Positions 1,773 to 25,316 of a stretch of 32,000 nucleotides of DNA are shown here, piece after piece. A program made the translations under genes and the position numbers. Numbering within the stretch: the stretch's first letter is position 1; each line of letters opens with the position of its first letter. The DNA is from Methanocaldococcus jannaschii DSM 2661 (GTDB lineage: Archaea; AGJL01; Methanococci; Methanococcales; Methanocaldococcaceae): the NCBI RefSeq assembly GCF_000091665.1, contig NC_000909.1:152871-184870 (forward strand). The letters run 5' to 3'. The notes beneath the pieces were generated by a model, which saw nothing but the letters and a program-made list of their open reading frames with translations, did no database searches and was not told the DNA's origin.

Positions 1773-4792
<3,020 letters not shown>

Positions 4793-4834: not shown

Positions 4835-4928
4835 TACGGGACTTTCGCAGTTTGTAATATTTATAAGGTAGTGAGATGCTGAAAGCATCAATTACCAAAT
4901 AAAAATTATTTCCTGCGAAAGTCCCGTA
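4835..4928 (+). repeat. TIR element copy A (94 bp) in the tRNA-Ala/23S spacer, antisense to the operon
   Basis: Perfect 16-bp terminal inverted repeat, TACGGGACTTTCGCAG (4835-4850) and CTGCGAAAGTCCCGTA (4913-4928). Central hairpin GATGCT-GAA-AGCATC at 4875-4889. Same layout as copies B and C. Confidence 0.8.
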
Positions 4929-4964: not shown

Positions 4965-4976
4965 CTGCATATATAG

Positions 4977-5049
4977 TGGACCCGGTGGGATTTGAACCCA
5001 CGGCCTCCGGCTTGCAAGGCCGGCGCTCTCCCAGCTGAGCTACGGGCCC
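4977..5049 (-). tRNA. tRNA-Ala (anticodon UGC), CCA not encoded
   Basis: The reverse complement is GGGCCCGTAGCTCAGCTGGGAGAGCGCCGGCCTTGCAAGCCGGAGGCCGTGGGTTCAAATCCCACCGGGTCCA. It folds as a cloverleaf with the G3:U70 alanine identity pair, a CTTGCAA anticodon loop and a GGTTCAAATCC T-arm. Confidence 0.95.
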
Positions 5050-5060
5050 ACTTTCCCTAT

Positions 5061-5102
5061 GAGGCAAGCCCACGACTGGTTTGGTGCCCCGCAGCAACCA
5101 GC
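5061..5102 (-). other. 3' half of the 16S pre-rRNA processing stem
   Basis: GAGGCAAGCCCACGACTGGT..CCCCGCAGCAACCAGC is complementary to 6634-6676. An unpaired middle segment (TTGGTG versus TTTCACC) is consistent with a bulge-helix-bulge site. Confidence 0.8.
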
Positions 5103-5113
5103 GCTTTTTTCTC

Positions 5114-6589
<1,476 letters not shown>

Positions 6590-6633: not shown

Positions 6634-6676
6634 GCTGGTTGCTGCGGGGTTTCACCACCAGTCGTGGGCTTGCCTC
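6634..6676 (-). other. 5' half of the 16S pre-rRNA processing stem
   Basis: GCTGGTTGCTGCGGGG..ACCAGTCGTGGGCTTGCCTC is complementary to 5061-5102. Confidence 0.8.
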
Positions 6677-6811
6677 AGCCCCAACCCCTCCGGATTGGGG
6701 ACGCATCCCTCAAGTGCATCCTATAACGAGAGGTTGTTATATGCAACGTTTTTAGGAATAGAACAATAATTTGAATAAATTATTAATACATGCTATGAGA
6801 GAAGATTATTG

Positions 6812-6909
6812 TAATAGGACTTTCGCAGGAATAAATTTTTTATTGCGTATTGACACCCTCTGGGTGTCTAAGTTCCAAATTCAATATATAAATTGCGAAA
6901 GTCCTATTA
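6812..6909 (-). repeat. TIR element copy B (98 bp) upstream of 16S, with its TATA box reading toward the operon
   Basis: TIR TAATAGGACTTTCGCAG (6812-6828) and TTGCGAAAGTCCTATTA (6893-6909), 16 of 17 positions complementary. Central hairpin GACACCC-TCT-GGGTGTC at 6852-6868. The minus-strand stretch TTTATATATTGAATTTGGAAcTTAGA is nearly identical to copy C. Confidence 0.8.
6885..6892 (-). promoter_or_regulatory. Candidate TATA box of the rRNA operon (inside TIR element B)
   Basis: The minus strand reads CGCAATTTATATATTG, an exact TTTATATA box and the best TATA match upstream of the 16S leader. The predicted start, about 23 nt downstream, falls in the hairpin loop near 6860. Confidence 0.5.
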
Positions 6910-6933
6910 TAAAATATTTGGAGCGTGGGATAC

Positions 6934-7215
6934 ATGGATGAAGTTAATATTAAAGTTGGAGATTATGTGGTTTATATAAATACTGGAACAAAAGGAAGAG
7001 TTGTAGATATAAGAAAAGACGAAAATGGAGACATTTGGGTTGTGTTAGATAACAATTTAATGTATAGACCGCACCTATTGAGAGTTATCGATAAGTCGAA
7101 GATAACAGAAAGAAAAGAAGATATTGATGAAGTCGTTAAGAAATTAGAAAAAGAAGAATTAGAAGAAGGAAAATTAATAGACCTGGATTTAGGAGATGCT
7201 TGTGGGGCTGGATAA
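6934..7215 (+). CDS. Small conserved hypothetical protein (beta-rich N-terminal half, acidic C-terminal half)
   Basis: The ORF track starts at GTG 6925. ATG 6934 has a GGAG SD 10 nt upstream. The protein is MDEVNIKVGDYVVYINTGTKGRVVDIRKDENGDIWVVLDN... Function is unknown. Confidence 0.6.
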   Translation: MDEVNIKVGDYVVYINTGTKGRVVDIRKDENGDIWVVLDNNLMYRPHLLRVIDKSKITERKEDIDEVVKKLEKEELEEGKLIDLDLGDACGAG

Positions 7216-24515: not shown

Positions 24516-24524
24516 TTACTCTTG

Positions 24525-24620
24525 AATAGGACTTTCGCAGTTTATATATTGAATTTGGAATTTAGATGCCTAAAAGGCATCATTTTCCTTATAGAGATTT
24601 ATTCCTGCGAAAGTCCTATT
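24525..24620 (+). repeat. TIR element copy C (96 bp) between convergent pelota and translin-like genes
   Basis: Perfect 16-bp TIR, AATAGGACTTTCGCAG (24525-24540) and CTGCGAAAGTCCTATT (24605-24620). TTTATATA lies at 24541-24548 and ATGC at 24566-24569. Hairpin GATGCCT-AAA-AGGCATC at 24565-24581 is followed by TTTT. Confidence 0.8.
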
Positions 24621-25216
24621 TGAACTCTTTTTAAATGTTCTCTAAGCTTAAGATTTTGAATAAAAGTAACAATATCTCCATGGGTTTTTTCTAAGATTCC
24701 TCTACTAATATCCTGCTTCCTTCTCAAATTATCCACTACGTGATAATAATCAAAGTTCATTAAAAATTCATATAAATCTTCCATAAATTTGAAATACCTT
24801 TCAACCTCTGCTAAATTATCATTTTTCATTGCCTCTAATACCTCTCTCCTCAACTCTCCAATCACATCAGCTAATCCTAAGATGTAGTTCTCTTCTTTAA
24901 TAAAATCAAGCTCTTTGAAACTTGGAATCTTATTATCAAACTTTATCATATACAAAGATAATGCCTCAACAAATTCCTGTTGAGGGGTAGATAAATATCC
25001 AACAAACTCTGGGAATGTTGCTAAACTATTTAGTTTTTTAATTTTTTCTGATATCTCATTTAATTTGTCTTTAAACTCATCTTTATCGTCTGATTTGTGA
25101 ATTTTTCTAATTAACATTGCACAATCTCTTGTTATTTCCCTTGATAACTTTAAAATTTCTTCTCTAACACTATCTTTATTTGCAAGGTAGTTTATTAGAT
25201 AATTTAGCTCATCCAT
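24599..25216 (-). CDS. Translin-family protein
   Basis: SVREEILKLSREITRDCAMLIRKIH... and NYILGLADVIGELRREVLEAM...YFKFMEDLYEFL parallel the translin helices. The start is set at ATG 25216 behind a GGTGGT SD. The last 7 codons and the stop lie inside TIR element C. Confidence 0.7.
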   Translation of the reverse strand: MDELNYLINYLANKDSVREEILKLSREITRDCAMLIRKIHKSDDKDEFKDKLNEISEKIKKLNSLATFPEFVGYLSTPQQEFVEALSLYMIKFDNKIPSFKELDFIKEENYILGLADVIGELRREVLEAMKNDNLAEVERYFKFMEDLYEFLMNFDYYHVVDNLRRKQDISRGILEKTHGDIVTFIQNLKLREHLKRVQIGLSQE

Positions 25217-25316
25217 TGCTACCACCAAAAATTTTATATACCCTATTGTTAGTATTTGTTTATACACTCCTTTTCTTTTATTACACTAATCCGTTATTAA
25301 TTTATACCTCAAATAA

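Follow-up and report, generated by a model that had tools for sequence, protein, structure and literature searches.

The region upstream of the rRNA operon analyzed here raises the question of where transcription of the operon starts, and of whether the repeated unit that carries the best-looking TATA box in that region is its promoter or an element that came to lie next to it. The window, i.e., the whole stretch of 32,000 nucleotides that was analyzed (contig NC_000909.1 of Methanocaldococcus jannaschii DSM 2661, positions 152,871 to 184,870), contains one of the two rRNA operons of a genome made up of three replicons (1,664,970, 58,407 and 16,550 bp); operon 2, at C1:638,334-643,315, is 99.7% identical to the operon in the window. 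An earlier note on this DNA had placed the rRNA promoter inside a 98-base repeat unit with inverted-repeat ends (copy B), and had proposed either that a MITE-like element carries a portable promoter or that the rRNA promoter region has been copied elsewhere together with such ends. The explanation that we favor, with a probability of about 0.85, is that the unit is an IS701-type MITE with lineage-specific copies A, B and C, and that the rRNA promoter is a separate sequence at 6759-6717.

The repeat unit and its family

The features of the window that concern the operon and the repeat unit are as follows.

1782-4783, minus strand: 23S rRNA, from the annotation scan of the window
4836-4927, plus strand: MITE copy A, between tRNA-Ala and the 23S processing stem, transcribed in the pre-rRNA in antisense orientation of the element
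4976-5049, minus strand: tRNA-Ala in the 16S-23S spacer
5114-6589, minus strand: 16S rRNA
6634-6677, minus strand: 5' strand of the 16S processing stem, pairing with 5060-5102
6810-6813, plus strand: left half of the 4-bp target duplication around copy B, reading TGTA on the plus strand, with TATA at 6908-6911 as its right counterpart
6814-6907, minus strand (the TATA-bearing strand): MITE copy B, 94 bp long, located 26 nt before the start of the DUF2098 gene
6852-6868, no strand assigned: central hairpin of copy B with a 7-bp stem and a 3-nt loop, from folding and stem covariation
6885-6892, minus strand: exact TTTATATA of copy B, immediately internal to the TATA-proximal arm
6934-7215, plus strand: DUF2098 gene, divergent from the rRNA operon
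24526-24619, plus strand: MITE copy C, between the convergent pelota-like and translin-like genes, with TTGA/TTGA at 24522-24525 and 24620-24623

What the earlier note had described of the unit itself was borne out. The unit is present three times, and the core said to be common to all six arms, the 11-mer GGACTTTCGCA, has exactly six occurrences in the window, forming three inverted pairs (4839/4914, 6817/6894 and 24529/24606), where 0.29 occurrences are expected by chance and where six were reached in 0 of 100 shuffles. For copy B, the 98-base unit could be refined to an element proper of 94 bp bounded by a 4-bp target duplication. The terminal inverted repeats are 15 bp long (ATAGGACTTTCGCAG), the 15-16-bp arms are 80-99% conserved over 43 copies of the genome, and the copies, 85-125 bp in length, contain no ORF of their own. 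Copies A, B and C each fold as a long hairpin with z-scores of -7.6 to -10.9 relative to shuffled sequence. The central hairpin had been said to keep its pairing despite changes in sequence, and indeed at least eight different perfect stems occur among the 43 genomic copies, with a central stem of at least 6 bp in 29 of the 43 as compared to 9% of shuffled controls. Also present are the exact TATA box attributed to copy B, TTTATATA on the minus strand, which is the best TATA match upstream of the 16S rRNA gene as claimed, and the promoter-like layout described for copy C, TTTATATA-N17-ATGC.

The unit can be assigned an orientation, since the profile gives far higher scores on one of the strands (for copies A, B and C, 70-94 with the forward and 32-37 with the reverse HMM). 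At one end, TTTATATAT is located immediately internal to the arm, and at the opposite end AATAAAT and a T-run motif. The TATA strand of copy B is the rRNA sense strand; copy A has the opposite orientation relative to rRNA transcription. The genome-wide count that the note had called for, carried out with an iterated nhmmer profile, gave about 46 full-length and 17 partial copies, every one of them on the chromosome; 15 copies in the genome have perfect arms. The full family in M. jannaschii thus amounts to about 50 copies, all oriented. It is abundant (22-71 copies) in five of 17 Methanocaldococcus genomes and rare or absent in the others. Divergent, convergent and tandem spacers contain copies in numbers proportional to the length of the spacers.

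Several copies lie in or close to genes. Three are in frame within long ORFs of 569, 541 and 496 aa, to which they add 31-32 codons and no stop (G000:C1:953494-953586, 1056872-1056965 and 1251127-1251219). Another copy (L001:1461-1590, G000:C1:31086-31215) starts about 2 nt past the GC-rich SECIS hairpin in the 3' UTR of fruA. The translin-family ORF next to copy C (24599-25267, minus strand) runs through the right arm of the copy and has its stop inside the element; therefore, the insertion replaced the last codons and the stop of this gene. The 3' end of the translin-family gene differs in relatives without copy C.

Empty sites and an IS701-family partner

Comparison with related genomes revealed the sites without the element directly. 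Among the upstream regions of 25 Methanocaldococcus rRNA operons, only that of the operon in the window has copy B, and in four close relatives (G001, G014, G002 and G013) its site is uninterrupted, with flanks about 95% identical on both sides and a single TACA/TGTA. Copy A is absent from the spacer of every relative in which both flanks were matched, the flanks abutting directly; a clean 4-bp duplication was not seen at copy A. Copy C is absent between the orthologous genes in three of the five sister genomes checked, and TTGA, present once at the empty site, occurs twice around copy C as a perfect duplication. Empty orthologous or paralogous sites were found for all of copies A, B and C as well as for the copy in the leader of operon 2. 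As judged from these alignments, copies A, B and C are recent insertions specific to the M. jannaschii lineage: copy A in the rRNA spacer, copy B upstream of what we take below to be the rRNA promoter, and copy C between convergent genes.

The target duplication is also visible in the family as a whole. Copy C and no fewer than three further copies have a perfect duplication, and flanks match at three or more of the four bases in 15 of 40 copies at the true boundary as compared to 2-5 of 40 at offsets shifted outward. Two other models of insertion were rejected: duplication of TA, as for IS630/mariner, since no TA is found at the junction of the empty sites of copies A and C, and insertion with zero duplication, as for IS200/IS605-like elements, since perfect 4-bp repeats flank copy C as well as copies of the IS described next.

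A partner was sought among DDE transposases across the genus, the loci of which were then scanned for arm-like ends. This search led to an IS of 1,135-1,137 bp, with nine near-identical copies in G013 and one in G011, the ends of which match the MITE arms at 14-15 positions and which encodes a protein of 332 residues. Perfect 4-bp duplications (CCAA, TATA and AATT) flank three of the nine IS copies, at a boundary identical to that of the MITE. The transposase matches the NCBIfam model NF049921 (IS701) with 293.6 bits (cut-off 250) and the Pfam families DDE_Tnp_1, DDE_Tnp_2 and DDE_5, and its nearest named relative is the IS701 transposase of Methanocaldococcus sp. 28A. Duplication of 4 bp of the target is a trait of the IS701 family (ISfinder).

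No such transposase is present in M. jannaschii, G001, G006 or G014, despite the fact that MITE copies are many in these genomes. When the M. jannaschii genome was searched for an intact homologue of the partner IS, only a relic was found: about 130 bp of the 3' end on the 58-kb extrachromosomal element (C2 ~56060-56190, minus strand), consisting of the last ~33 codons and a degenerate terminal repeat, which is the only trace of the partner in this genome. Orphan arms that could represent partner ends were sought in the M. jannaschii genome and none were found. Among other candidates for the partner, the long repeats of the genome proved to be CRISPR-leader-like or unrelated, and the two PF01609 genes present in the genome are part of another IS, which is degenerate and lacks matching ends.

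Since a matching IS exists and is represented here by a decayed fragment, the unit can be regarded as an orphan IS701-type MITE. We propose that it was moved in trans by the DDE transposase of the 1,137-bp IS701-family IS, which is intact in sister species and decayed in M. jannaschii, so that the ~50 copies of this genome would now be orphans, because only the 3' fragment of their partner survives. Sequence common to MITE and IS is confined to about 15 bp at the termini and an AT-rich subterminal motif, which limits the case for descent by internal deletion; a similar AT-rich motif lies just inside the terminal repeat at both ends of the IS. Of the proposal of a MITE-like element carrying the rRNA promoter, the first half is thus upheld by inverted repeats, 4-bp duplication, empty sites and IS701 partner, whereas the location assigned to the rRNA promoter is not, as described below.

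The very stable hairpins, together with compensatory changes in the arms and the central stem, could also be expected of a gene for a structured small RNA or of a palindrome selected for protein binding, neither of which would be mobile. We consider this very unlikely, as presence and absence differ between sister species at all three loci tested, target duplications flank the copies, the ends are common to a transposase-bearing partner, and copies occur in any context, including in frame inside three genes. Moreover, an Rfam scan of the window gave no match for the unit, the only matches above the gathering threshold being the rRNAs and tRNA-Ala.

A conserved rRNA promoter downstream of copy B

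Alignment of rRNA upstream regions revealed a single nearly invariant block about 180 nt before the 16S rRNA gene, followed by a variable stretch and a conserved ATGC. In the window, the corresponding features are the following.

6748-6759, minus strand: BRE-like block of the rRNA promoter, with the invariant CCTAAAAAC at 6756-6748
6740-6747, minus strand: TATA-like box GTTGCATA of the rRNA promoter, family pattern RWTRCAWW
6717, minus strand: inferred start of the pre-rRNA, at the G in ATGC, corresponding to a 5' external spacer of 128 nt

The sequence CCTAAAAAC, then exactly 30 nt, then the G of R-T-G-C-R was observed in 38 of 38 distinct rRNA upstream regions from five Methanococcales genera, so that the layout extends to four genera of the order beyond Methanocaldococcus. 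The 30-nt interval comprises the 8-nt TATA-like box and 22 nt before the G at which transcription would start. The sequence between CCTAAAAAC and the G varies, and the distance from the G to the 16S rRNA gene is 98-159 nt, or 225-226 nt where the leader carries an insertion. According to the published rules for M. jannaschii, the BRE (consensus MRCCGAAAAG) lies directly upstream of the TATA box, the initiator is TGC with the G as start, and 23 ± 2 nt separate the edge of the TATA box from the start (PMC2602779). The layout of the rRNA promoter is in accordance with these BRE/TATA/Inr rules. In two genomes with three rRNA operons (Methanococcus-like), the G lies 149 nt before the 16S rRNA gene, and the 5' spacer of M. 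maripaludis, defined by dRNA-seq and primer extension, is 149 nt. By homology to this mapped relative we infer that the pre-rRNA starts at G 6717. The resulting 128-nt leader includes the strand of the 16S processing stem at 6677-6634, and copy B occupies positions -97 to -190 relative to this start.

The rRNA operon would hence be transcribed from its own ancestral promoter, consisting of the BRE-like block at 6759-6748, the TATA-like box at 6747-6740 and the start G at 6717, 97 bp downstream of copy B. The earlier note had itself named the sequence at 6745-6760 as the alternative that would speak against its promoter, and it is there that the promoter block conserved across the order was found. 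That the principal promoter of the operon should nevertheless lie inside copy B is barely credible, even though copy B has the best TTTATATA match upstream of the 16S rRNA gene: the copy is missing from 24 of 25 Methanocaldococcus upstream regions, including those of relatives 95% identical over the flank, the ancestral promoter block is intact downstream of it, and the leader would measure about 273 nt as compared to 98-159 nt in operons without an insertion. Furthermore, operon 2, for which the presence of the same unit was checked as the note had suggested, has tRNA genes and a T-run terminator at the position equivalent to that of copy B. The other alternative, a copying of the rRNA promoter region to further places, is refuted, since the element and the conserved rRNA promoter have nothing in common.

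It speaks against this placement that the conserved rRNA box resembles TWTATATA poorly, whereas the TTTATATA of the element is perfect, and that the rRNA box has a low score on a PWM derived from 24 tRNA promoters of M. jannaschii, which recovers the published consensus. As the element and the rRNA promoter both score low, this matrix does not discriminate between them here. Because the rRNA box scores poorly on it, it seems to be the BRE-like block, and not the TATA box, on which Methanococcales rRNA promoters depend.

Further copies of the MITE are associated with the rRNA operons. Operon 2 carries a diverged copy at leader position +9 (G000:C1:638236-638329), and the insertion in the operon-2 leader is also found in one sister genome (G006). 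This leader insertion, with variant arms and at an identical site, is located in the DUF2098-side operon in G006 (L036/L045) and in the tRNA-side operon in M. jannaschii, and the 99.7%-identical tract of the two M. jannaschii operons stops exactly at it. The leader insertion was probably moved between operons by gene conversion. Altogether, five of the ~50 copies lie within or at most ~500 bp from the two rRNA operons (G000:C1:157706-157797, 159684-159777, 638236-638329, 640117-640208 and 643776-643869), far more than expected from the share of non-coding DNA at these places; they represent four independent events if the two spacer copies go back to one event spread by gene conversion. Both copies transcribed in pre-rRNA, i.e., those in the spacer of the window and in the leader of operon 2, display paired arm changes that raise the GC content, ATAGGAC/GTCCTAT to ACGGGAC/GTCCCGT and GGAC..TTTCGC to GGGC..TTACGC, with matching partners, and in both the consensus T-run is shortened or lost on the transcribed strand. 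This pattern points to selection that acts on the RNA hairpin and disfavors termination signals in transcribed copies.

The TATA box of the element and known repeat families

If the element does not harbor the principal rRNA promoter, the role of its TTTATATA has to be considered separately. The box is conserved at 80-90%, like the arms, which would also fit a selected promoter function. Most likely it derives from the subterminal region of the parent IS, where it would have belonged to the transposase-binding region or to the transposase promoter. Alternatively, it could work as an accessory promoter, directed inward (start ~6862) or outward through the arm (start ~6914, toward DUF2098), in which case the family would spread promoters like Correia elements. 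Arguments for such activity are the perfect TTTATATA at 6885-6892, followed by TGC about 19 nt downstream in most copies, and the conservation of the box; the published range from TATA to TGC in M. jannaschii is 19-24 nt, of which the ~19 nt of the element represent the lower limit. According to published work, archaeal TATA boxes are nearly symmetrical. Gene starts tend to be closer to the TATA-proximal than to the distal ends of copies (median 52 vs. 101 nt, Mann-Whitney p = 0.055), and ends lying 5-45 nt from a gene start are more frequent on the proximal side (14/29 vs. 4/22, Fisher p = 0.04, with the threshold chosen post hoc).

The arm at the BRE positions, however, misfits MRCCGAAAAG in both directions, and the PWM scores are -1.6 inward and 0.6 outward, values reached or exceeded at ~47,600 and ~23,200 genomic positions, respectively. 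In addition, the orientation of copies in tandem spacers is not significantly biased (15/23, p = 0.21), and the presence of the AT-rich subterminal motif at both ends of the parent IS suggests a role in transposition.

The DUF2098 gene provides a particular case. In relatives, its best plus-strand TATA candidate is TATTAATA at 6781-6788, with a predicted start at ~6811, the insertion point of copy B. Copy B thus coincides with the start predicted for the ancestral promoter of DUF2098, a start that the insertion would have disrupted. A role of the element as an outward promoter is therefore possible, and it may serve as a minor promoter. In view of the evidence on both sides, we regard an accessory promoter within the element as rather unlikely. 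The broader idea that the outward TATA box of the MITE takes over promoters, e.g., that of DUF2098, and that the inward one adds a minor rRNA promoter, remains similarly doubtful.

The element shares box A TTTATATA and, usually, a TGC about 19 nt further on with methanogen stable-RNA promoters (box A TTTATATA, box B ATGC; PMC2602779), but its BRE misfits and it lies at no stable-RNA gene in a manner conserved in relatives; the true rRNA promoter, as opposed to the element, combines a strong BRE-like block with a non-consensus TATA box. Correia/NEMIS elements of Neisseria are likewise palindromic MITEs, of about 100-150 bp, with promoter-like boxes near their ends and frequent location upstream of genes. 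Their promoter activity has been demonstrated, whereas here there is a resemblance in sequence in which the BRE is poor, and the two differ in transposase family as well as in domain of life. The closest likeness is to IS701-type and other prokaryotic MITEs (PMC10969869; Redder et al., 2001, for Sulfolobus), with which the unit has in common its size (94 bp) without an ORF, ends identical to those of an IS, a 4-bp duplication, tens of copies, insertion polymorphism between species and AT-rich targets. Unlike in those cases, the cognate IS is absent from four of the five copy-rich genomes, M. jannaschii among them, arms and central stem evolve by paired compensatory changes, and copies are tolerated in the rRNA spacer and leader of a hyperthermophile.

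The arm sequence was not found in the relevant literature searched. Suyama, Lathe and Bork reportedly described, in 2005, 141 palindromic repeats of about 100 bp (MJRE1-3) in M. jannaschii, most of them intergenic, and three MJRE2 repeats are said to lie within genes with the reading frame unbroken. In that work, the MJRE were reportedly not connected with the rRNA operons, with a target duplication of 4 bp or with a transposase of the IS701 family. MJRE1-3 and the MITE family agree in genome, in being palindromes of about 100 bp located mostly between genes, and in three in-frame copies. The MITE family is probably one of the MJRE1-3 groups, because exactly three of its copies are in frame inside genes, as reported for MJRE2.

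In the first archaeon to be sequenced, a long-known family of palindromic repeats would thus gain a probable origin in an IS701-family partner since lost from the genome. For annotation there is a risk to be noted, as the best candidate for a TATA box ahead of an archaeal rRNA operon is here part of the relic of a recently inserted transposon and not of the operon. The rRNA promoter is placed at 6759-6717 instead. Its layout is unusual in combining an invariant BRE-like block with a non-consensus TATA box and a fixed interval of 30 nt, and it holds for five genera. If the takeover of promoters by the element were true, IS701-type MITEs would have rewired promoters across Methanocaldococcus and would be an archaeal counterpart of Correia elements. 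Finally, the rRNA spacer and leader tolerate MITE insertions at 85°C, and paired changes have strengthened the stems of the copies located there.
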